A DNA stretch of 23,604 bases from a virus (Duplodnaviria; Heunggongvirae; Uroviricota; Caudoviricetes). Shown here in pieces: positions 1,993-19,282 of this stretch. The stretch lies in IMG/VR virus record IMGVR_UViG_2529292985_000014, positions 1 to 23,604 of that record; one strand, given 5' to 3'. Position numbers and translations under genes: made by a program. The notes beneath the pieces are model-generated. The model was not told the DNA's origin and did not search any database. It saw nothing but the letters and a program-made list of their open reading frames with translations. Within the stretch, counting starts at the first letter, position 1; the number at the start of each line of letters is the position of its first letter.

Positions 1993-4900
1993 TTAAGCCG
2001 CCGCTTCAATGATTTTACGCACTTCATCAATTGAATAGCGCGTCGATACCATCCAGGCCGGACGGTCAAAGTCCACATCGGCAACCGGGTTAACTTCGAA
2101 GTTCCAGAAACGCCCACCGATTTTCTTGATGGCATCTTTTGCGTTGCGAATAGATGAAGATCCGGGCATATCTGCAATGAGATAAACAGCACCAGCGTCT
2201 TCACTTACGCTCCACCAGCGACCGCGGACACGTGCTTTGGCGCGAATAGGCTTATCGTTTACCACGATAATGTAATCATCATTTGCTGCCTCGTCAGCCT
2301 TATTCTCAGCAGCATCAGCCTGTTCTTCCCGTTCAGTCTTAGCCGCCGCAAGACGTTCAGCAATCTCTGACTCCGTAGCGCCACTATTTTTAAGCGACAC
2401 AAAGTCATCCCACGTTGCAGATTTCAGAGCATCAGGCAACTCTTCCACATACCCGCCCGCTTTTAAGGCGTTAGCATGGCGTATAGCCATCCCGACAAGA
2501 CGATTCAAGCTATCTGCATCTGCGAAATCATCACGGGTAATGCTTTTATCCTCAAATGCATGAATTAACGCCCCCGCTTTAATCCAGACTGTTGCAGATG
2601 TTTCAAGCGGATTATCGGCATTAGAAATGCTTAGTTGCGCACTGTAAACTGACTGATCTGCCAACGAGGCAAGTGACGCCCAACCATCTGCATCACTTTG
2701 CATTTTGTACTGATCAAACAGCGCATCACGCCATGCATTTAGCGCCATGCGTGTTTTCTCAATTTTGGTTGTGATTTTGGACGTTCGCAGTTGTTCGAAC
2801 ATCTGCGAAATCTCCGAACCATTGGTGAAGGCTTTCATGCGCCCCTGGAAATCGCGGAAAGAAAGCACGCCTCGCCAGTACGTTTCCAGGCCTTCTCCAT
2901 TTGGCTTGCGGAACAAGCTGCGGACATCTTCCTGAGTCACTTTTTCAAGTGAACGCCCGGAGAGATCGCGCCCTGCCATCCAGCCATCGAACGCCTTGAC
3001 CACATCATCCATAGTGGCCTGAGCGCCCCATGCCTCCATACCTTGCTCATAATCGAAGCCAAACAATGCACGGAGAAAACCTTCTGCCTCTGAAATACGA
3101 AGTGGGTTATCACCTGTCTGGATTTTCGCGACTTCGCGTTTTAATGCTTCGTCGTTTACATCAGGATAAATCCATTGTTCAGGTGCTATCTCGTCACTTC
3201 CAGATGCGCTAATTTTTTGACCAATCATCCCGCCATAGGTAAAGGCCATTTGAATCTGACCATTGGCGTTACGATAAGCCCAATAGTTTACATCCGGTGC
3301 TCCTTGCCAACCGCCACGATCTCTCCCAGTTACCCGCATAACACCGCTACGAATAGCGTCATAGAATTGATCGCGAGAAAGAGAGGTTGAAAGCTGGTGG
3401 CTTTGAACACCACGTGCCGCTATTTCTCGTGATTCAGCCACCCCCTCTTCAAATGTTACCGCTTCAACCACTGAGTCAAACGGTAATGTCATGGTTGAGC
3501 CAGGAGAACGAGAGTGGCGACTTGCTCTATCCAGCCAGGCGACGCGGCAGGTGTATTGCGCTTTTTCGCCCTCAATTTGTGTCACGCGTACAATCGCCGT
3601 TGTCTCGTATTCAGCATCAATGACTGCACGGTAGTAACTACCTTTATGCAACAGGATGTTCTTGCCAGTGCGCATATACTCCTGCGGGTTCTGAATAACA
3701 TCGATACTGATATCCAGCACACCAGACTTAATAGCACGCTCCACATCACCACGAGAGCGTTTCATAACAGTATCCGCGTCCTTCGCCCTGGTGATTGCAA
3801 ATCGCAATTCACGCACTCTTTTTTTAGCTTTGCTTAGTGCTGAAAGCGTATATTTCTGTCCGTTTTTGTTGGTGCCGCTCTTAATCAGTCCATCCAGATC
3901 ACTCTGGTATCGTTGCGCCTGCTCCATCGCGCTTTTCAGTTCTGCCTCCATCATGCCGATATCCTTCCCGGCAGCATTCGCCGCTTTCAGGTAGTTATCG
4001 AGAGCATTATTGGCTTCGCGTTGCGCTTTAAGTCGCAGGCGTTCCTCACGTTCTTTCGACTGACGAGCCATAATTGCGCGTCGTTCTTCCGGATTTGCCG
4101 CCAGCATAATGGCGCGCTCATCAGCGTCATCCGCATCACCATTGGCGATCTCTGACATATCGGAGGTCATCACCATCTTGATCCAGTCTTTCTTACGTTT
4201 AAGCGTATCCAGACGGAAGTCATCGAATGTGCCTTTGCCACAATAATAGTGAACATTAACCTTCTCTTGCGGAGAACCTACGCGCGCACCGCGCCCATTT
4301 CGTTGGTCGATACTGGCAGGAGTCCAGGGTAGTGTCAGGTGGTGAATATCGGTCGTTCCAATATGCAGGTTGATACCTACTTCGGCTTTCTTGTTACAGA
4401 TAATGATTTGCGTGCGCCCTTCGTTATAGTCGGCAGCAATACCTTCCATCCCCTCAAGGCCAGCATCATTTTTAGCAGAGAGATAATCCTCATATTGGGC
4501 CAGTTTACTGTAGTAGGTTTCCCATGCGCCTTCTTTGTATTCACCGTCTTTGTTTGGCGTCGGTTCGGTCGGTTTTTTGACCTTTTTCAGCTTAACACCA
4601 CCAGCCTGGCTAACAGTCGTAGCATTGATAATGCCTATCTCCTGCTCTGGCATTTGCAACGCACTGGCAATGATGCGACGTAGTTTCTGGTGCTGGGCTT
4701 TCTCGTCGATAAAGATAATTTGCTTACCGTTCTTAAGCCCTTCACGAAGGTTCTCGATAAGTGCGGCATACTTAGGCGGGATCGGGTGTGACACCTGTTT
4801 CATGTCGATGCCTGCATCAGCAATTGCCTTGAGTATTTCAGCCTCCAGGTCAATGCTGGCACGCAATTCGACGTGATTTGGATGCTCACTAAATGTTGTA

Positions 4901-7900
4901 GCTACAACCTTGCTGGTACGGGTACTGACCAGGCCTCCGATCGCATCCTCCTCTGCTTCTTCTGCATCGTCTGCCGCTTTCCCACCAGCCACTTTTGGTA
5001 GGTTATTAGCTATAGACTTCACCTGTTCAGTAAGTTCTACAGGGAACTGGAATGTGATAGCGCTGGCGTAAAGATCCGGGTCGATAGCGACCTTATCCAT
5101 GTCGCGAATGATAGAGAAAATGAAATCATCCGGTTTCCCGCGAGTGATATTGCCTTCATCATCGACAGTGACGTCATCACCACGACTTAACTCCTGCGCG
5201 CGTTTACGAAGCTCTTCATAAGCTGCTTGCTGCTCTGGAGTCATTGGGATCTGCAAGGTGTTTTCGACGATATCCGGGATTTTTACCGTTGCACCAACAT
5301 CGGAAGCCGTTTTAAGCGTTGTCCAGCGGTGGAAAATGCCACGCAGACCATCAAGGTTCTGGAAGCCCACCAGCCCCTGTTTCTCTTCCACTTCGCCAGA
5401 AATTTTCTGGACCTGAACAGTGGCTGTTTTACCGAACACTCGCACAAAGTCGTCAGGGGTAATAATCCCCATGTGCATCCACTCGTGCTGAGGGATCACC
5501 GTTGACAGCATGTTGAAGGCGTCAATAGGGCTATTAACCAGCGGAGTTGCTGTCAGCATTACGACGCCGCGCCCATTGTGACGTTTCATCATGTACGCAG
5601 CTTTTACAGCCATGTCACGGGCCATTTTGGATACCGCCGGATTAGGTAAATATGCCAGTTGCCCCGCTTCACGCCCGGCACCAAAGGAGTTGCGGTAGTT
5701 ATGCCCTTCGTCGGCAATTACGCTATCGAAGTTCATATCCTCAAAGTACGGGATATTCTGCTTCTTCGCTGTACCGGTATTCGCGGCCTGGTCCTTAATC
5801 TTGTTCTTCTTCTGCGCATCACGGTGCTTGCCTGACGCCAGGTCAAGACGCCCCATTTCGGCGGCATTAAAGACAGCCTGCTGTGAGTTTTCTCCGATGG
5901 TTTCATCGCGCAACGGGATAGATGCGAACTGCTCTTTTGTCATGATGACCGTTCGCCAGTTCGACGATGGGATCATGTTCATGCGTTGAGCGATAACGGC
6001 ACTGGCGGATTCTTTAACAACATTACGGGTGATCGGATTGCCGTCGTTATCAAGTCGCGGGGTGCCGTCCTGGTCGAGCACTGGGGCAGTCTGAATATTT
6101 CCGTCACCATCGCGCACTTCGTCCAGACCGATAAACATCATATTGGCGAAGGCATCTGCACTGTAGAAGCTCTGTGCCTCGTGATACCAGTTCTGGTATA
6201 CGGCCTTTGGAACAACGATACAGGTACGTTTGGTTCGCCCGGTTTCAAAGTTATAGGCTTCCAGTGCCAGCGCGGTCGTCGTTTTACCCAAACCAGTTCC
6301 GAATCCCATAATCCCGCGCCCATCTTCCGACAGACGACGAACTTCTTCGTTCTGGTAAGAAAGCGGTATACGTTTCCCGCTGATGCCTTCAAGCCCCAGG
6401 GGTGCGTCTGAATGGGTAAATGGAATATAACCGTTAAAGGCGTCGTTATAATCGCGGGCGATCTGGTCTGCCTGCGGGTGAGTTCTTAACCAGTCGTTAA
6501 AACTCGTCTCAAGCTGGGCGATTTTGTCCAGGTACTCGTTAGCGTTCTGTCCGCGCGGTTTAACACCGTTCAGGTAGTTCTCAAGCTGATTCAGGAAGCC
6601 ATCTTTGTTATTCGCTTTCTTGAACTCGTTCCCGTTTTTGCCGTTTACGGTTCGTAGCTGGTAGCCAGTAAATACCCCGTCCTTACCTTCGTAATCGTCC
6701 GGGGATACCAGAATGCCGTTCTCAACCTTAAGGTCGGGTTCTGTATACTTAAACTCGTCATAGCCCTGCTCTGCCAGGAACTCTTTTATCAGGCGGCGAT
6801 CCAACCACCGTGCGTTAAGGTTTACCGTGACTTTGTTCAGCGGTGTAAACGTGCGTTTCTCTTCGATTTTTGAAAGCTGGCGCTCAAAGTTGGCCTTCCG
6901 CTCTCCTGTGGACGCGTCTCGCCAGCCCACCAGCAGTGCCACTTTTGATTTAATATCACCGCTAGTGGCACGGCCCATCGGTAGCAGGCAACCATATCCA
7001 TCAATAGCGATATCGTCGAATTTCGCCAGGTATTCCTGTGCTTGATCGTCGTCTTCTGGCAGTTCGCCTTTAAACGCCTCGCGGAAGTCATCAAGATTGA
7101 TAGGATTAAGGGCAACATCGCTGAAAAGGTGTGTCACAACCTGTTCCGGACGAGTGAAATCAATACCAGCAGCCCCTTTGCTAACATCAAGCCGTCCGGA
7201 CAGCAGATCGGATGCTTCACCGTCCTGATTGACGTTCCCGGTGAATGTCAGCCAGTTCTTCGCGCCCGCTTCGGTAATGTCGTTTAGCTTAATGGCGTGT
7301 GGTGGGCCATATTTAGCAACTTCGGCAGCCGTCAGACGTGCGGCATCAGCCAGTTCATCATCGACGTTTTCACCAAGGTTACGCTTATCCAGCGCTTTAT
7401 TGATAAGTTGCCCGATCAGCGCACCGCGCATAATGCGCTCACGGTCTTTTTCGCGTTGTTTCCCAGCAAAGCGAATCATTGCCGCTACTTCATCACTGAT
7501 AACCGATGGATAGTCGGAAGCGATCGCGGATATCTGCCCCCATGACAGAGCCAGAATGCCGTTTGTTGATTGGAACGTTGTTTGCAGATCACCGAATGTC
7601 GAAACACCATATCGGCTTACATCAAGTACGGAGGATTTGGTTGTCGCATCTTTAACCCATTGCAGGCCATCAAACTCGTGCCAGATGCCACCTACAAGGC
7701 GCTTGTCTCCTACTTTGGCGCCCTGCCATGCCTGAGTAGTTACGCCAAGCAAATCCCAATTAATGCGGCTTTCAAAGCGGCGCGATAGAGCGGTTTTCAT
7801 CGACTCATTGGATACACGACCGTCCTTTTTCACCACCAGAGTATTGCGGAAGCTGGTACGTTCCATGTCGCCGTAAACAAATCGCTTCCCTTCGGTTGTA

Positions 7901-8910
7901 AACCATTTTCCTTTGAGGAAGGTATCCCAAAGGACGTTTGCCGATTTGAGTGTTGAATCATCCGTGTCGGGGATCATCTCCAGGAAGGTTTCCGGGTGTT
8001 TACGCAATACCCATACGTCCACCACGGTATCTGTACCGGATTCGCTGAACGTACCGGAAGGCATACGATGTGCGCCCAAAAATTCCGCTTTACGGCTGAC
8101 TTTATCGCGCAATTTTTTATATTTCGTACCATCGGTCATGCCATTCGGCACCACCAATACGATAAGCCCACCAGGCTTAACCTTGTCGATCGTGCGCAGC
8201 ACAAAGTAATTGCCAACGTTCTTCTCGTTTGCATATGCCGGATCAAGCCCGGCGACACCGGAACGCCCTTCACCAAACGGTACGTTACCAACAGCGTGAT
8301 CATACATTGCGTCTTTCGCCGCCAGCGCCTCAAACGCCCCGATATTCACATCGTCTTCCGGGTGCAAAAGCTGGTTTATTCGACCGGAAATCGGAGACAG
8401 TTCGGCGCTGGTCATTATCATGCCCTGTCGTTTTGTCTCCTGGAAAATACCTGTGCCCGCTGATGGTTCCAGTACGTGCCCGCCATCAATACCGTAGTCA
8501 GCAAACAGATCCCATATACCTTCAGCCATAAACTGTGGCGTGTAGTATTCGTATTGGCTGCCCTCACCATCTGTCAGGCCGCCTTCACCGGTATACCCGG
8601 CAAGAATCTGACGCTGTTCGTCAGTTAATTTCGCCCCATCGAAGCCGGGCGGAAGGGAATTAAGAAGCTCTACTGCGGCGTTGTTTGCTGCCCGCCGTGT
8701 TTTTTGAATGCTGACACCATCGACTTTCTTAACGCCAAAGGTCGCAACAGCACGTAATTTATGCAACCGACTAACAATTTCAATCAGTTCGCCTAAGCTG
8801 GAGGCTTCACTGATTGAATGAAGTAGTTTATCCAAAGGATTACCCCCTCTAAACCGTAAAAAATCCGCTATGCGGTACGGTTGAGAGGGTATGGAGAATG
8901 TTATTTTCAC
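1993..8910 (-). CDS. darB: DarB-like giant protein: N6-adenine DNA methyltransferase domain plus SF2 helicase core plus long C-terminal region
   Basis: 2305-aa uninterrupted ORF. MTase motif I VLEPSAGTGIF and motif IV GNVPFG (NPPF-type), roughly nt 7900-8560. Helicase Walker A GFGTGLGKTTT (about nt 6270), motif II VIADEGH (about nt 5710), motif III LTATP, motif VI QRNGRGARVG (about nt 4290). The track start is GTG 8910 with no SD. TTG at 8835-8833 is preceded by AGAGGGGG at 7 nt and may be the real start. Confidence 0.8.
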   Translation of the reverse strand: MKITFSIPSQPYRIADFLRFRGGNPLDKLLHSISEASSLGELIEIVSRLHKLRAVATFGVKKVDGVSIQKTRRAANNAAVELLNSLPPGFDGAKLTDEQRQILAGYTGEGGLTDGEGSQYEYYTPQFMAEGIWDLFADYGIDGGHVLEPSAGTGIFQETKRQGMIMTSAELSPISGRINQLLHPEDDVNIGAFEALAAKDAMYDHAVGNVPFGEGRSGVAGLDPAYANEKNVGNYFVLRTIDKVKPGGLIVLVVPNGMTDGTKYKKLRDKVSRKAEFLGAHRMPSGTFSESGTDTVVDVWVLRKHPETFLEMIPDTDDSTLKSANVLWDTFLKGKWFTTEGKRFVYGDMERTSFRNTLVVKKDGRVSNESMKTALSRRFESRINWDLLGVTTQAWQGAKVGDKRLVGGIWHEFDGLQWVKDATTKSSVLDVSRYGVSTFGDLQTTFQSTNGILALSWGQISAIASDYPSVISDEVAAMIRFAGKQREKDRERIMRGALIGQLINKALDKRNLGENVDDELADAARLTAAEVAKYGPPHAIKLNDITEAGAKNWLTFTGNVNQDGEASDLLSGRLDVSKGAAGIDFTRPEQVVTHLFSDVALNPINLDDFREAFKGELPEDDDQAQEYLAKFDDIAIDGYGCLLPMGRATSGDIKSKVALLVGWRDASTGERKANFERQLSKIEEKRTFTPLNKVTVNLNARWLDRRLIKEFLAEQGYDEFKYTEPDLKVENGILVSPDDYEGKDGVFTGYQLRTVNGKNGNEFKKANNKDGFLNQLENYLNGVKPRGQNANEYLDKIAQLETSFNDWLRTHPQADQIARDYNDAFNGYIPFTHSDAPLGLEGISGKRIPLSYQNEEVRRLSEDGRGIMGFGTGLGKTTTALALEAYNFETGRTKRTCIVVPKAVYQNWYHEAQSFYSADAFANMMFIGLDEVRDGDGNIQTAPVLDQDGTPRLDNDGNPITRNVVKESASAVIAQRMNMIPSSNWRTVIMTKEQFASIPLRDETIGENSQQAVFNAAEMGRLDLASGKHRDAQKKNKIKDQAANTGTAKKQNIPYFEDMNFDSVIADEGHNYRNSFGAGREAGQLAYLPNPAVSKMARDMAVKAAYMMKRHNGRGVVMLTATPLVNSPIDAFNMLSTVIPQHEWMHMGIITPDDFVRVFGKTATVQVQKISGEVEEKQGLVGFQNLDGLRGIFHRWTTLKTASDVGATVKIPDIVENTLQIPMTPEQQAAYEELRKRAQELSRGDDVTVDDEGNITRGKPDDFIFSIIRDMDKVAIDPDLYASAITFQFPVELTEQVKSIANNLPKVAGGKAADDAEEAEEDAIGGLVSTRTSKVVATTFSEHPNHVELRASIDLEAEILKAIADAGIDMKQVSHPIPPKYAALIENLREGLKNGKQIIFIDEKAQHQKLRRIIASALQMPEQEIGIINATTVSQAGGVKLKKVKKPTEPTPNKDGEYKEGAWETYYSKLAQYEDYLSAKNDAGLEGMEGIAADYNEGRTQIIICNKKAEVGINLHIGTTDIHHLTLPWTPASIDQRNGRGARVGSPQEKVNVHYYCGKGTFDDFRLDTLKRKKDWIKMVMTSDMSEIANGDADDADERAIMLAANPEERRAIMARQSKEREERLRLKAQREANNALDNYLKAANAAGKDIGMMEAELKSAMEQAQRYQSDLDGLIKSGTNKNGQKYTLSALSKAKKRVRELRFAITRAKDADTVMKRSRGDVERAIKSGVLDISIDVIQNPQEYMRTGKNILLHKGSYYRAVIDAEYETTAIVRVTQIEGEKAQYTCRVAWLDRASRHSRSPGSTMTLPFDSVVEAVTFEEGVAESREIAARGVQSHQLSTSLSRDQFYDAIRSGVMRVTGRDRGGWQGAPDVNYWAYRNANGQIQMAFTYGGMIGQKISASGSDEIAPEQWIYPDVNDEALKREVAKIQTGDNPLRISEAEGFLRALFGFDYEQGMEAWGAQATMDDVVKAFDGWMAGRDLSGRSLEKVTQEDVRSLFRKPNGEGLETYWRGVLSFRDFQGRMKAFTNGSEISQMFEQLRTSKITTKIEKTRMALNAWRDALFDQYKMQSDADGWASLASLADQSVYSAQLSISNADNPLETSATVWIKAGALIHAFEDKSITRDDFADADSLNRLVGMAIRHANALKAGGYVEELPDALKSATWDDFVSLKNSGATESEIAERLAAAKTEREEQADAAENKADEAANDDYIIVVNDKPIRAKARVRGRWWSVSEDAGAVYLIADMPGSSSIRNAKDAIKKIGGRFWNFEVNPVADVDFDRPAWMVSTRYSIDEVRKIIEAAA

Positions 8911-8985
8911 GGGGACGATACTACCGTCAAAATCACATACCCCCCATAGTTTGCCTGCTTATTAACCAATGACCGGAAAAAAAAT

Positions 8986-9471
8986 ATGGCAAACATTGAA
9001 CCTCGCTGGCTAATTGAAGCACGTAAGCACATTGGCCTGACTGAAATAAAAGGCGCTAAACACAACCCTGAAATCGTTCAGTTTTGGCGCGACATCAAGC
9101 GCGGCGGAATTAAAGACGATGAAACGCCGTGGTGCGCAGCATTTGTCGGTGCAATGCTGGAACGTGTAGGCATCCGCTCAACAAGATTTGAGTCGGCAAA
9201 ATCCTATCTGGATTGGGGCGCGAAATTAGATACACCGGCATACGGATGTATCGTTGTATTTACCCGCGTAGGCGGTGGGCACGTAGGCTTCGTTGTCGGA
9301 CGCCGCGCCAATGGCGATCTGCTTGTCCTGGGTGGGAACCAGGGGGATGCGGTTAATATTCGCGCATTCCCAACATCAAGAGTGTCTGGCTATCGCTGGC
9401 CTGCTGGCGAACCACGCAATACCGCTCTGTTACCAGTCGGAGACGCAGCAACCTCAACTAATGAGGCATGA
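8986..9471 (+). CDS. CHAP / NlpC-P60-like Cys-His hydrolase (TIGR02594-like); candidate peptidoglycan hydrolase
   Basis: 161-aa ORF with ATG start. Candidate catalytic Cys in TPWCAAFVGAM and His in GGGHVGFVVG, spaced as in CHAP-type amidases/peptidases (from memory). Only clearly coding plus-strand gene left of cin, divergent from darB. Confidence 0.55.
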   Translation: MANIEPRWLIEARKHIGLTEIKGAKHNPEIVQFWRDIKRGGIKDDETPWCAAFVGAMLERVGIRSTRFESAKSYLDWGAKLDTPAYGCIVVFTRVGGGHVGFVVGRRANGDLLVLGGNQGDAVNIRAFPTSRVSGYRWPAGEPRNTALLPVGDAATSTNEA

Positions 9472-9495
9472 AAAAAGCCCCGACCAGGCCGGGGC
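9471..9495. terminator. Hairpin terminator, functional mainly on the minus strand
   Basis: A-tract 9471-9476, stem GCCCCG (9477-9482) pairing with CGGGGC (9490-9495). The minus strand gets hairpin plus U6. The plus strand has no T-run after the hairpin. Confidence 0.5.
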
Positions 9496-9573
9496 ATCAC
9501 GCTTCAAGTCACGATCCAATCATTACCGACTATATCAGCCGTCGATAAATCAACTTCCCGGATCTGGAGTCCA

Positions 9574-9798
9574 TCAGTGTGCCTCCGCAATGCTGGGATT
9601 GGTAATATTGCGATACCAGGGATTAGTGTTTGGTTGTGGGGAAGTAGAGAAACGACCAGTAAGAACACCATACTGATCAGGGATCAGAGAACGGGCTTCT
9701 TTTTCGGTTGCGGCAATTGCGAAGTGATCGCAGTGTTTTTGCAGGGAGTGGAAACGCCAGATGAATTCTGGACGTGAGCAAGGATTGGCATTAACCAT
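9574..9798 (-). CDS. Hypothetical 74-aa protein
   Basis: ATG start with GAGG about 9 nt upstream. Minus-strand terminator about 80 nt downstream. No recognisable domain. Could be spurious. Confidence 0.3.
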   Translation of the reverse strand: MVNANPCSRPEFIWRFHSLQKHCDHFAIAATEKEARSLIPDQYGVLTGRFSTSPQPNTNPWYRNITNPSIAEAH

Positions 9799-10211
9799 AG
9801 TTACGGCCTCACTAACAGGTTTAACAACCTGCTACCCGCTGTCAAACAGGTGGCAGGACGTGACAGGGTTGACAGACTGGCGTTAGTGAAACCAGCAGGC
9901 CGAAGCCTCCCCATCACGCCCCACCATAATTCGGGCGTAACGCGGTTTACGGACACAAAAATACCGCAATATCGGAAATCTGCGGTTGTCCGCACTAACA
10001 TTCAGGCTGTCAAACCTGGTCGCAGAATTTGCTACGACGGCATGAATATAAGCCTGAAAACATGGAAGATCAACTAAAAATTTCAGCAATGGATGACTTC
10101 AGTCGATGATGCAGATCATACATTCCGATTTAGAAACAGAAAATTAATTTTCTAATACAAATCATCGAGCGAGCATTTGCCGATCATTGGGATGTTTTGT
10201 AGGCACACAGG

Positions 10212-11174
10212 TCATCCCCTAAATCCCGCAGGGATTGACCAATCCTCCCGGTCAAATTCAGACCGATAGCCACGCTGTTTCATCAGGTCAAAGGCTTCAC
10301 CAATGGTTGCACACCCCTGGGAGCCAGAATAATCCATTGAGAAATCCAGGGCACTGGATTGTTTAGGCTTATTCACTGCGGTAGCGGCACTACGTATCCA
10401 TGCAAATTTTTTTGCCAGCTTTTCAGCGGTACGATACAGAGCCTGCCGTTTTGCGTGCCCCTCGTCTGAACGACGCTTTGCAGCTCTCGCTTTTGCCGCC
10501 GCCAGGCAGCGGTTGGTATGTTCTTCCCTGATTACTGGTTTTTTATCCAGCACCCCATTATCCGCTTGAGAACTATCTGCTGGTGAAGCCTTTGGCTGAA
10601 CCGCGCATGATCTTTCTCTTCTTTTTGCTATAGAGTGACTCTTATTTTCTATTGGCTGTTCATTTTGAACATGGGGGGACTTGTTCAAAATGAACAGGGG
10701 GTTCCCAGTTTCAAAAAAATAACGAACCTTTGAAATCAACTGCTTAACCAGTTTTGTGGCGTTGGCAAATTTGATGCCCTGCTTACCCCCTATCTCCATT
10801 GCTGCATGAATGAAGTGGAGAAATTGTGTCGTAAACCGATATACGTTACACACCTGGGCATTGTTATTCGCTACCTGATGTTGCCTAACAAGCATTCCGC
10901 ACTTCGTCGCTTCAGCAAATGCCCGGCGTACAGTAGAAATACTGCGTCCTGTAATCTCGGACATATCAGCATATGAGCGACGGATCATGTATTCATCGGT
11001 AGCCCCTGCCAGGTTGGCGAACTCGGCAATAATAGCGCTATGTGAAGGGGAAAGAAGACCGCTATGACGAGCAAAAAAACTCAACTGATGACCTTTGATT
11101 TTTTTGTGGTATTCAGTGTTGTTTTTATACTCAGAAGTGTTGAAAGTTACTGAAACTGAATTTAAAATATTCAT
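10212..11174 (-). CDS. Hypothetical DNA-binding protein with HTH-like segment and basic central region
   Basis: 320-aa ORF with ATG start. HTH-like MSEITGRSISTVRRAFAEATKCGMLV. Lys/Arg-rich stretch AKARAAKRRSDEGHAKRQ. Contains the paired palindromes at 10658-10702 in its linker region. Confidence 0.5.
   Translation of the reverse strand: MNILNSVSVTFNTSEYKNNTEYHKKIKGHQLSFFARHSGLLSPSHSAIIAEFANLAGATDEYMIRRSYADMSEITGRSISTVRRAFAEATKCGMLVRQHQVANNNAQVCNVYRFTTQFLHFIHAAMEIGGKQGIKFANATKLVKQLISKVRYFFETGNPLFILNKSPHVQNEQPIENKSHSIAKRRERSCAVQPKASPADSSQADNGVLDKKPVIREEHTNRCLAAAKARAAKRRSDEGHAKRQALYRTAEKLAKKFAWIRSAATAVNKPKQSSALDFSMDYSGSQGCATIGEAFDLMKQRGYRSEFDREDWSIPAGFRG
10658..10702. repeat. Two adjacent palindromes TGTTCA-TTT-TGAACA and TGTTCA-AAAA-TGAACA, each followed by a G-run, inside coding sequence
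   Basis: Read directly: 10657-10705 is CTGTTCATTTTGAACATGGGGGGACTTGTTCAAAATGAACAGGGGGTT. It encodes ...NPLFILNKSPHVQNEQP... of the 320-aa protein. Confidence 0.6.
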
Positions 11175-14069: not shown

Positions 14070-14133
14070 GAATCACCGCAAATTGTTTCCAGTTTTGCGG
14101 CAGCATAATCAGTATGTGATTTCAGCGGTTGGT

Positions 14134-15531
14134 TTAGTTTTCTGTACGGCAATTATTTGGAACTGTAGAATTTTCAAACATAGCAAAGTTCAGACCTTTC
14201 CCTTCGCCAAATTCACCCTCAATTTCATCAGATACAGCAGACAAAATACTACGCAGATCAACATCGCCACCGCCGAACATATCGCCCAATGCCTGTTGTT
14301 TATGAGTCAGCTCGTCGTTGATTTTTTGCGCCATTTTTTTGAATGCTGCCCCCATACGCTTCGCACTGCGATTATTTGCTACGATGAATAGCGCCAATGC
14401 CTCAGCTTCCGGTGTACTGTCGCCGAATAACCCCCTTTGGGCGATCACTTCTTCAACGGCCTGACCGTTGTCTTTGGCTTCACGTACAAGATTAATTGCT
14501 TCCTGGAGTGCTGCTATCGCCTGTGTATCCAGGCCATTAACCTGCTCTATACCGTCCACTAAGCCTGTTACTGCGTCATGGTGAGCGTCGCCAGACAGCG
14601 ACTGCATTTGCGCAAAATCGCTGGCTGCCGTATTTAATGCGATCAGGATATTACGCATTTCCGGATCTGGCTCTTCCGACACCAGCCGAACAAGCCTTTC
14701 ATCCTTGTACGCTTTGGCAAAAATTGCATTCTGGATGCGATCGATAAGCTGTTTCGTGGGACGCCCATCGGCAGTAAGCAAGCCTGCCGTCGCTGTATCG
14801 CCAATTTCGCGCAAAAACGCACGAATAAACGCATCATTGGACCGCGCCAGCAGGTTTCCATCATCTGAAGGATTAAATAGCGCCATGACGCTCTCAGTGA
14901 GAAATTGCGCATCCGCATACGCTTTTTCACTTGCTGCCATCTCTTGCAGATCACTAATGTTTGAATCGCGGGCAAATTGAGCGCGGTCTACATCTGTGAG
15001 TCTTTCTCGCACCAGTACGGGCATAGACATTTGCGAAATTTCGTCAGGATTCAGACCAAACTCTTTCGCATGGTCGATCAGGTACTGGCGATACTCATCC
15101 GCCTGTCCTTGCTCATAGGCACGCCAGATACCCATACTCCTTCCGTTGCCGGATTCAACAACGTTGTCCGGACCAACTATCGGCGCTCCATGGCTGCTCA
15201 TACCGGAATCCGTTAATTGTGCCGGGCGTAAATCGGAGGCAATACGGTTAACCTGGAGTTTGCTGGATAGCCGGGTACGATCTCGTGGTTGGAGTTCTTC
15301 CGGGAAGGCCGGGTTAATCGTACCGTCAAGGTTGTTCGAAATGATTAGACTGCTGGCATCAACGACCTTAAAAGCCGTCTTTACCTCTGCGCCTTTGCTG
15401 GTGACTACGTAGCTACTTCGCCCCATGCGTGTTTCTTTCCTCTCTAATGAAGAAACCAGAGCAATGACGCTGTTAATATCTGCGGCCTCGGAAAGCGCAG
15501 AAGTAACTGATTTGTTCAAAATACACTCCAA
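14134..15531 (-). CDS. Hypothetical alpha-helical protein, possibly a virion internal protein (downstream of the DdrA-like gene)
   Basis: 465-aa ORF. Track start is TTG 15531. An alternative TTG at 15519-15517 has GGAG 6 nt upstream. No motif recognised. Confidence 0.35.
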   Translation of the reverse strand: MECILNKSVTSALSEAADINSVIALVSSLERKETRMGRSSYVVTSKGAEVKTAFKVVDASSLIISNNLDGTINPAFPEELQPRDRTRLSSKLQVNRIASDLRPAQLTDSGMSSHGAPIVGPDNVVESGNGRSMGIWRAYEQGQADEYRQYLIDHAKEFGLNPDEISQMSMPVLVRERLTDVDRAQFARDSNISDLQEMAASEKAYADAQFLTESVMALFNPSDDGNLLARSNDAFIRAFLREIGDTATAGLLTADGRPTKQLIDRIQNAIFAKAYKDERLVRLVSEEPDPEMRNILIALNTAASDFAQMQSLSGDAHHDAVTGLVDGIEQVNGLDTQAIAALQEAINLVREAKDNGQAVEEVIAQRGLFGDSTPEAEALALFIVANNRSAKRMGAAFKKMAQKINDELTHKQQALGDMFGGGDVDLRSILSAVSDEIEGEFGEGKGLNFAMFENSTVPNNCRTEN

Positions 15532-15588
15532 CTATAGAGAAAGCTGTGAGTGTAAAAAGAGTGTGATTTATGTGAGAACAGAGAAGTG

Positions 15589-17907: not shown

Positions 17908-18520
17908 GCTCATCCTCCAGGCGCGCGATTTCTTCTTTAAGAGCACGTGTCTTAGCTACTTCCTGAGACAAGGCAGCTTTAACGTTACCCGTATCTTGCA
18001 TTACTTTGTCTGACTTGCTCTGGAGTTTAGACAGTTTGTCGTTAGCATTAGCGATATCTTCACGGAGTGCATCACGTGATTCTTTCGCTTCAGCTAATTT
18101 CTGAGCGTTGGATTTAACTCCCTGCCGCTTCTTATTTTCGTCATCAATATTTTTTGCTGCACGAGCAAGTTTTCGAGCTAATGACTTCTGGAAAGAAGTT
18201 GCTCCGCGATTAAATAAAGCCGCAAGAGATTGCCCCAAAGCCGACATTGTTTTTACTGGCTTGAACGGTACTGTTTTACCATTCAGTTTGATCCCAGATA
18301 TATCACCGGTATCGTTAACCTGAACTTCCATTGTCTGTTCATCAAGACCAATAAGGGTAAACGTGCGCGTCATGATCCCATCTTTCTTCCTGCCATTACT
18401 TGCAGGGATCACCCTCGCTATCTTGTAACCACCTTTGCTGATTTCTTTGACGAGTTTTGCCAGCCCCTTTTCGTTTAACTCATCATAATTAAGAAGAACA
18501 TAATTATTCTTATTTGACAT
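17900..18520 (-). CDS. hdf: Hdf-like protein (homolog of a DarA fragment)
   Basis: Likely start ATG 18520 with AAGGAGG 5 nt upstream (the track GTG 18535 is less likely). Segment SALGQSLAALFNRGATSFQKS resembles DarA-like LSQVCQALSNLIERNSEKF, and both are followed by a coiled coil. Confidence 0.45.
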   Translation of the reverse strand: MSNKNNYVLLNYDELNEKGLAKLVKEISKGGYKIARVIPASNGRKKDGIMTRTFTLIGLDEQTMEVQVNDTGDISGIKLNGKTVPFKPVKTMSALGQSLAALFNRGATSFQKSLARKLARAAKNIDDENKKRQGVKSNAQKLAEAKESRDALREDIANANDKLSKLQSKSDKVMQDTGNVKAALSQEVAKTRALKEEIARLEDEHD

Positions 18521-18956
18521 CCCAGCCTCCTTCACGCTTTTCGATCGTAAACTGGCGCTCTATGCAGTCATTGATAGGGAAAATGCGATAAAGCGGATTC
18601 AGTCGGCAGTTACCGTTAGTCAATGTGACTTTCAGATCCCACTTCGTTGGCTCAAGATATTTCGTATCGATGAGCAAATACTCTTCTCTCTCACCGCGTT
18701 TTGAGGCGTCAACTGGTCGTGTTTTCCCTGAAATAACCACAGATGGATTTTTCAGGTCTTGCAACCAATATTCGATTTGAGCATTGCTGACCCAGCTTCG
18801 CTTAACACGTAGCGAAACAGGAAATGCTATAGCAGATTCTTTCACTACAGCGTCACCAATACTCAAAATCTCAACACTCTTGCGACGAAAAATGAAACGG
18901 TCAATGATGGCAACAAATGCCATGATAAAAATGAAATAATTCCCAAAGTTACCCAT
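18510..18956 (-). CDS. LydB-like membrane-anchored protein (candidate antiholin or lysis regulator)
   Basis: 148-aa ORF. ATG overlaps the holin stop (TAATG). N-terminal hydrophobic segment NYFIFIMAFVAIIDRFIF followed by a soluble domain. Confidence 0.45.
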   Translation of the reverse strand: MGNFGNYFIFIMAFVAIIDRFIFRRKSVEILSIGDAVVKESAIAFPVSLRVKRSWVSNAQIEYWLQDLKNPSVVISGKTRPVDASKRGEREEYLLIDTKYLEPTKWDLKVTLTNGNCRLNPLYRIFPINDCIERQFTIEKREGGWDVK

Positions 18957-19282
18957 TATTTCTCTCCACCTTTTCCCCCATTCGCTATTACGCTTAAGAG
19001 ATTCAAGACGTTACTAGCTCTGGACTTCAAGCCCTGTAAAATTTCTCTTCCGTTGTTACTGGCAATCAGAACAACGCAGAAAATGATACCTTCAGGCCAT
19101 TCCTGGCTAACCGCCACCCCATACCCCGCAAGCCCGGCTGTTACCGCAGTAAACAATTCACTCGCAAGATTGAGCAGGGACGCAGAAATGCGCCCGTCTC
19201 TAACTCCGAGAAGGAATACGCCGGTTCCACTTAGTAGGGATGTTATGACTACTACAGCCAGATTTTCATAATCTGCAAACAT
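18956..19282 (-). CDS. lydA: Holin (LydA-like), three predicted transmembrane segments
   Basis: 108-aa ORF with strong SD GGAGGGG before the ATG. Hydrophobic stretches LAVVVITSLLSGTGVFLLGV, LFTAVTAGLAGYGVAV and IIFCVVLIAS. Basic C-terminus. First gene of the operon. Confidence 0.55.
   Translation of the reverse strand: MFADYENLAVVVITSLLSGTGVFLLGVRDGRISASLLNLASELFTAVTAGLAGYGVAVSQEWPEGIIFCVVLIASNNGREILQGLKSRASNVLNLLSVIANGGKGGEK

Follow-up and report, generated by a model that had tools for sequence, protein, structure and literature searches.

The proven endolysin of phage P1 is Lyz (gene 17), a T4-lysozyme-type glycosidase and a SAR endolysin with an N-terminal SAR segment. The lyz gene forms a late unit of its own with lydD and lydE, lies downstream of and convergent with prt-pro, and is far from lydA and lydB. 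In Escherichia phage D6, a P1-like plasmid-prophage, the gene orf16 (ASR76417.1) is annotated as encoding a “putative peptidoglycan hydrolase,” with darB on one side and an immI-like region on the other. Its named counterpart in the Salmonella plasmid-prophage pYU39_89, SE14_05128, has already been proposed as part of a lysis module (PMC6799933). TIGR02594-type endolysins of contiguous lysis cassettes provide a further point of comparison: they are stand-alone proteins of 159–181 aa that adjoin a holin gene and mostly an Rz-like or spanin gene too (P0053, A051, Septimatrevirus, ZC01). A literature search for a biochemically characterised TIGR02594-type endolysin gave annotation-level mentions only.

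The stretch of DNA analysed here in full (hereafter the window; 23,604 nucleotides, IMG/VR virus record IMGVR_UViG_2529292985_000014) carries the same gene in the same setting. Positions 8700–9800 share 98% DNA identity with D6, and the entire window is colinear with D6 10.3–35 kb at 87–97% identity, which identifies it as a D6-like P1-family phage-plasmid; the best plasmid match reaches approximately 92% over the whole window. The D6 gene order is kept: pmgM, ulx, a darB-like gene (1993–8910, minus strand; D6 synteny), an ORF of 161 aa (8986–9471, plus strand), icd (9574–9798, minus strand; D6 synteny), the C4 antisense RNA (9846–9931, minus strand) and its a1/b1 targets (9999–10051, minus strand; both from Rfam), and repL (10212–11174, minus strand; D6 synteny). 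These are followed by pro, prt, ddrB, ddrA, darA, hdf, lydB and lydA, all on the minus strand, and beyond lydA by cin and an invertible tail-fibre segment. The 161-aa ORF runs intact from ATG to TGA and is the sole plus-strand gene within a minus-strand block of roughly 19 kb, with every neighbour on the opposite strand, just as the preliminary description of this DNA had noticed. Its product is 99.4% identical to D6 orf16, and the flanking genes are also those of orf16. The window differs from D6 in that 829 bp are missing just downstream of the gene and the ribosome-binding site is weaker (Shine-Dalgarno GGAA, compared with GGGAG in D6).

The 161-aa protein matches the NCBIfam model TIGR02594 with 143.6 bits (cut-off 70.55), covering model positions 2–132 of 132, and Pfam CHAP with an E-value of 2.5e-7 (31.6 bits, gathering score 26). 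Both scores lie over the curated cut-offs and assign the protein to the NlpC/P60 papain-like superfamily. Candidate catalytic residues are Cys50 (nt 9133–9135) and His99 (nt 9280–9282), which are invariant in 53 homologues of 67–90% identity; N118, Q119 and D121 are invariant in the same set and are candidates for the third catalytic residue. The initial suggestion of a Cys-His hydrolase of CHAP or NlpC/P60 type is therefore borne out. Searches of the PDB by sequence and by profile returned chance matches only (GAPDH, NDUFS6), so a comparison of folds was needed. With an AlphaFold2 model built from the 53 homologues (mean pLDDT 85.5, pTM 0.85), Foldseek retrieved MepS, a Thermus NlpC/P60 endopeptidase, Cg1735, RipB and LytE from the PDB, each with probability 1.0. 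The modelled protein has a papain-like α+β fold, with C50 at the start of the predicted helix H49-60 and H99 within a predicted β-strand; the papain-like fold anticipated in the preliminary description thus holds at the level of predicted structure. Sequence identity to the solved structures of LytE, CwlO, MepS, RipB, LysIME-EF1, PlyGRCS, the LysGH15 CHAP domain, Tse1 and Tae3 is 14–21%, and the 161-aa protein differs from solved NlpC/P60 and CHAP peptidoglycan hydrolases in lacking a cell-wall-binding domain. DL-endopeptidase is the commonest activity among its closest structural neighbours, and by this analogy a γ-D-Glu-mDAP endopeptidase is the most probable specificity.

The N-terminus is hydrophilic, and the highest 19-residue Kyte-Doolittle mean (1.42) falls in the β-core; hydropathy analysis found no signal peptide, SAR or TM segment in the protein. 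It therefore combines a muralytic domain with the absence of any such segment, as expected of a canonical endolysin, and differs from P1 Lyz, to which it has no homology and whose hydrophobic N-terminus it lacks. Without a SAR segment, it would be expected to gain access to the murein only through holin lesions.

Because the same domain serves baseplate-hub lysins in the Ackermannviridae and T6SS effectors elsewhere, fold alone leaves the role of the protein unfixed, and genetic context is more informative. The hydrolase family is large (8,354 clusters at 50% identity) and occurs in 553 phage records. In a Salmonella lambdoid prophage, the gene of a 161-aa homologue of 70% identity, P0053, is found downstream of a Q-antiterminator, between Phage_holin_3_1 and DUF2514 genes and ahead of Nu1/GpA; by gene order this place is the lambda R slot. 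A Klebsiella homologue sits between antiterminator and terminase. In the Aeromonas P2-like phage A051 the homologue (ORF05, 70%) follows the holin gene and precedes ORF06 and LysC, which is the P2 K slot. Pseudomonas Septimatrevirus has the order holin-endolysin, and phage ZC01 endolysin-holin-Rz. These cassette enzymes are up to 70% identical to the window protein and share its invariant Cys and His. Domain architecture and closest relatives thus point to an endolysin. As a separate observation, a gene for an AcrIF11-like ADP-ribosyltransferase (L010 3131–3592, minus strand) lies just upstream of the TIGR02594 endolysin-slot gene of a Klebsiella prophage.

Conservation among D6-like elements indicates that the gene has a settled place in the lineage. 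Both a Raoultella plasmid (82% aa identity) and an 88-kb metagenomic contig (77% aa identity) retain the arrangement of darB (minus strand), homologue (plus strand) and repL-pro-prt (minus strand), and both are without the icd-ant insertion. On this distribution the hydrolase gene belongs to the stable core of the lineage, whereas the immI genes beside it are gained and lost. Values of dN/dS are 0.05–0.11 against the Raoultella, metagenomic and lambdoid homologues, for which dS is saturated, and 0.16 against D6. Taken together, dN/dS of 0.05–0.16 and thousands of homologues identify 8986–9471 as a gene and not a chance ORF. The metagenomic D6-like contig also carries, beside prt, a group II intron reverse transcriptase with RVT_N, RVT_1, GIIM and HNH domains (L016 10700–12439, minus strand).

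When would such a gene be expressed? Annotated late promoters of P1 have the form AAGTGAYTW-N4-TANNNT, and no site of the type AAGTGAYTW-N3-5-TANNNT was found at any operon start in the window. For this reason a D6-type motif, AAATCACA-N7-YANNNT, was derived in this analysis from D6 upstream regions. D6 contains seven such sites, against 0.16 predicted by a first-order Markov model. All are intergenic and on the coding strand, at 19215, 25241, 27747, 38135, 45511, 54144 and 72120; they lie upstream of late-type operons, the genes concerned being orf16, prt, ddrB, R, pmgB(-sit), the major capsid gene and mat. The window has three sites where 0.05 are expected: 8930–8950 (plus strand; AAATCACA-N7-CATAGT), 36 nt upstream of the hydrolase ATG, 14102–14122 (minus strand), upstream of prt, and 15549–15569 (minus strand), upstream of ddrB. 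The site upstream of prt matches the annotated LPpro of P1 in position, and the core AAATCAC of the motif is the reverse complement of GTGATTT in the P1 LPlyz box. The motif recurs as AAATCACA-N7-CACTAT upstream of the diverged orthologue in L016 and, in a variant form, as AATTCACA-N7-CACCAT upstream of the orthologue in L015, with the intergenic sequence otherwise different in both. The –10 element of the hydrolase-gene site, CATAGT, is imperfect, and no sigma-70-like promoter was called on the plus strand. Since the motif is common to structural operons and kept in orthologues, it suggests Lpa-type transcription at the same late stage as the morphogenetic operons, and the site at 8930–8950 would be the lineage-specific Lpa-type late promoter of the hydrolase gene. 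Such timing would fit an endolysin and also a virion protein, but not a moron expressed in the lysogen. The consensus would also aid the annotation of late operons in D6-like replicons.

On the opposite strand, the longest darB ORF begins at GTG 8910, and the D6-annotated start lies 27 codons further in. A sigma-70-like sequence, TTGACG-16-GAAAAT (8930 to 8903, minus strand), overlaps the late-promoter-like box, so the 75-bp spacer between the two divergent genes may hold overlapping promoters.

Downstream of the hydrolase gene, a terminator scan and folding identified a GC-rich hairpin (9477–9495) common to the convergent transcription units, with folding energies of –20.3 and –22.9 kcal/mol and z about –3.5 on both strands. 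The T-run stands on the minus strand, the strand called by the scan, whereas on the plus strand the stem is preceded by an A-run. By consensus, the minus-strand T-run means that the hairpin primarily terminates the convergent c4-icd operon and not the hydrolase gene. The terminator reported beside the gene is therefore real as a stable hairpin, but it belongs by consensus to the facing operon.

Several further differences from D6 were observed in this part of the replicon. The 829-bp deletion (junction 9570–9574; D6 MF356679 19860–20688) takes out a Roi/Rha-type antirepressor gene and the 5′ part of orf17, right after the icd stop codon, and retains the C4 RNA, the a1/b1 targets and icd. The top PLSDB and complete E. 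coli plasmids all retain the antirepressor, and the deletion was seen in none of the top matches from PLSDB or from complete E. coli genomes; in the diverged relatives L015 and L016 the entire icd-ant block is absent at the same site. A second segment of approximately 1.1 kb with D6 orf23 and orf24 (a DUF4145 protein), located between prt and ddrB, is also missing from the window (about 14122–14174; D6 25241–26352). The P1 C1-operator consensus gave no match with up to 3 mismatches allowed. Elsewhere in D6, the unannotated orf6 (191 aa; L004 5054–5629, minus strand) has a Tad2-like (Thoeris anti-defence 2) domain, the match to Pfam PF11195 (E 1.1e-9) being over the cut-off.

A canonical endolysin requires a holin on the same phage, and a candidate is present. 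The lydB-like antiholin gene (18510–18956, minus strand; D6 orf29) is supported by Pfam LydB with an E-value of 1.1e-24. The adjoining lydA-like gene (18956–19282, minus strand) is syntenic with D6 orf30 (“similar to P1 lydA”) and would encode the holin that releases the endolysin; its product has a hydrophobic N-terminal segment and matches Pfam Phage_holin_3_3 over the full length of the model, although weakly (E 0.0067, below cut-off). The holin and LydB-like pair of the preliminary description is upheld, firmly for LydB and by synteny with a weak match for LydA, at a distance from the hydrolase gene of 9 kb and not 10 kb. The gene is accordingly outside any lysis cassette, and the D6 spanin genes are elsewhere again. 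Linkage in a cassette is no strict requirement, however, since the proven endolysin gene of P1 is also unlinked from its holin.

The spanin genes of D6 deserve a separate description. D6 orf55 (L002 22189–22807, minus strand, equivalent to D6 55088–55706) encodes an Rz-like i-spanin (phrog_214, 3.9e-15) with an N-terminal TM segment. An overlapping o-spanin with a signal sequence and lipobox LSGC (MRYAVLGLTMCVCLMTLSGC) begins upstream of the annotated GTG of orf54, the start of which therefore appears to be mis-annotated. Holin and antiholin, endolysin candidate, and spanins are thus located at three separate loci in D6.

Is there another endolysin? When P1 Lyz, LydD and LydE were compared by tblastn with complete D6 and the window, nothing was found (best E 0.2–0.6; 0.6 for Lyz), and the controls Pro and IsaA gave 1e-77. 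The GenBank (authors’) and RefSeq annotations of D6 contain no other muralytic protein except Sit, its tail-injection transglycosylase, and ten unannotated D6 ORFs had no muralytic match in PHROGs or Pfam. The search for other lysins covered the reference genome D6, which is locally 98% identical, and the window. The T4-type lysozyme that the preliminary description had envisaged elsewhere as the true endolysin was found in D6 neither by tblastn with P1 Lyz nor in the two annotations. With holin, antiholin and spanins present and no other candidate lysin found, orf16 is left as the sole gene that could fill the endolysin role in D6.

It is therefore probable that the gene encodes a soluble, LydA-holin-dependent endolysin of the NlpC/P60-CHAP type, which has replaced the P1 SAR lysozyme cassette lyz-lydD-lydE. 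Among the roles offered in the preliminary description, that of an endolysin is favoured by the predicted papain-like fold and by D6 having no T4-type, P1-type or other endolysin. Late in lytic growth, a lineage-specific promoter, presumably dependent on the Lpa homologue, would transcribe the gene alongside the head and tail operons. The 161-aa enzyme would fold and accumulate in the cytoplasm because it has no export signal. On triggering of the LydA holin, at a time set by the LydB antiholin, it would pass to the periplasm through the holin lesions, where a papain-like active site of Cys50 and His99 would cut the peptide part of the murein. The Rz/Rz1-type spanin pair encoded elsewhere (D6 orf55/orf54) would then disrupt the outer membrane. 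It is from sequence and model that we infer when the gene is transcribed, which bond the enzyme cuts, and that it depends on the holin and is required for lysis.

An alternative is that the enzyme is accessory, speeding lysis or widening the range of murein chemotypes cut, with another, unrecognised protein acting as the true endolysin. About 40% of D6 ORFs are without an assigned function, just ten unannotated ORFs were scanned, and the absence of a second lysin is established for reference D6 only. However, no lysozyme, transglycosylase, amidase or peptidase match appears in the D6 annotations or the scanned ORFs, and both the strength of purifying selection and the fixed synteny speak for a core function, which makes an accessory role unlikely.

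The enzyme could instead be a virion-associated lysin that travels in the tail or baseplate, or inside the head with the Dar proteins, and opens the murein locally at injection. PHROG 1259 and the RefSeq entry for D6 orf16 carry the label “baseplate hub subunit and tail lysozyme,” and gp5-like “tail-associated lysozymes” of the Ackermannviridae contain a TIGR02594-type domain about 40% identical to the 161-aa protein. In Kuttervirus this domain is internal to a 541-aa gp5-like protein encoded between baseplate hub and wedge genes (gp118 of Salmonella phage FrontPhageNews, L017 3045–4670), and in Caulobacter phage CcrBL10 the match falls in the tape-measure gene. The hydrolase gene also shares its 75-bp divergent control region with darB, which encodes a head-packaged protein, and has a late-type promoter motif. 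The label is itself best treated as a transfer and not as evidence, because the Kuttervirus domain is buried in a hub protein whereas D6 orf16 is free-standing; it appears to derive from the Ackermannviridae fusion proteins and is probably wrong for D6 orf16. The window and D6 protein is a bare catalytic domain, without hub, OB-fold or β-helix part, and its gene lies between darB and the immI-like region, outside the tail and baseplate operons. D6 already has a tail transglycosylase in Sit, the closest relatives (70% identity) are found in holin-spanin cassettes and not in tail modules, and D6 would otherwise have no endolysin. The virion-associated lysin proposed in the preliminary description is hence disfavoured, and appears a little less probable even than an accessory enzyme.

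A moron or toxin was also among the earlier suggestions; the gene would then encode an effector of amidase type or serve some other function in the lysogen that has nothing to do with lysis. In favour are TIGR02594 domains at the C-terminus of predicted Stenotrophomonas T6SS effectors and the position of the gene, alone on its strand beside the immunity region. This role is nevertheless very improbable: the protein lacks a signal peptide and any delivery domain such as PAAR or VgrG, there is no T6SS context and no adjoining immunity-like small ORF of the kind seen with Tae-type effectors and polymorphic toxins, PADLOC defence models gave no match, the position of the gene is kept in diverged D6-like elements though the neighbouring immI genes vary, and its promoter motif is shared with structural operons. 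Equally slight is the chance of dual use, in which the endolysin would also travel in the virion, perhaps alongside the Dar proteins, and on injection make a local opening in the murein during entry.

The endolysin reading is in itself ordinary and would not surprise a phage biologist, since the gene was already annotated in D6 and the pYU39_89 counterpart had been assigned to a lysis module (PMC6799933); the finding is nevertheless real. What is added here is the demonstration that D6 has no lyz homologue, the finding that close homologues occur in lysis cassettes, an explanation of how the misleading RefSeq label arose, a candidate late-promoter motif and the D6 spanin pair. The practical value lies in the correct annotation of D6-like elements: 94 of 5,426 complete E. 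coli genomes (about 2%) carry most of the region, and D6-like plasmid-prophages are also present in Salmonella.

Set against known systems, the endolysin reading completes a dispersed lysis system. The phage type represented by the window carries its holin, endolysin and spanin genes at three loci, as P1 does, and not in one contiguous cassette as in A051, Septimatrevirus, ZC01 and the prophage encoding P0053. The split layout would be ancestral to the group, because P1 lyz is likewise unlinked from lydA and lydB. For the same reason “relocated,” the term used for this gene in the preliminary description, is misleading; what has changed is the enzyme, by non-orthologous replacement. Compared with the Ackermannviridae proteins, in which the domain forms part of a baseplate hub, the D6 and window protein is free and encoded outside the tail modules. 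P1 Lyz, from the same phage group, would be a functional parallel, and the two genes are comparably placed, the hydrolase gene likewise lying downstream of prt-pro and convergent with it. The two proteins share no sequence similarity detectable by tblastn, and LydD and LydE have no counterpart here; P1 Lyz is a glycosidase, and the window protein is a predicted cysteine peptidase or amidase of a different fold. LydA and LydB may thus work with a SAR lysozyme in P1 but, in the D6-like phages, with a cysteine peptidase that is strictly cytoplasmic, an arrangement considered more likely than dual use of the enzyme. If this reading is true, the P1 group has exchanged one type of lysin for the other while keeping LydA and LydB, a small but testable insight into the modularity of holins and endolysins, and P1 and the D6-like phages would together represent a natural swap experiment on the compatibility of holins with their endolysins.
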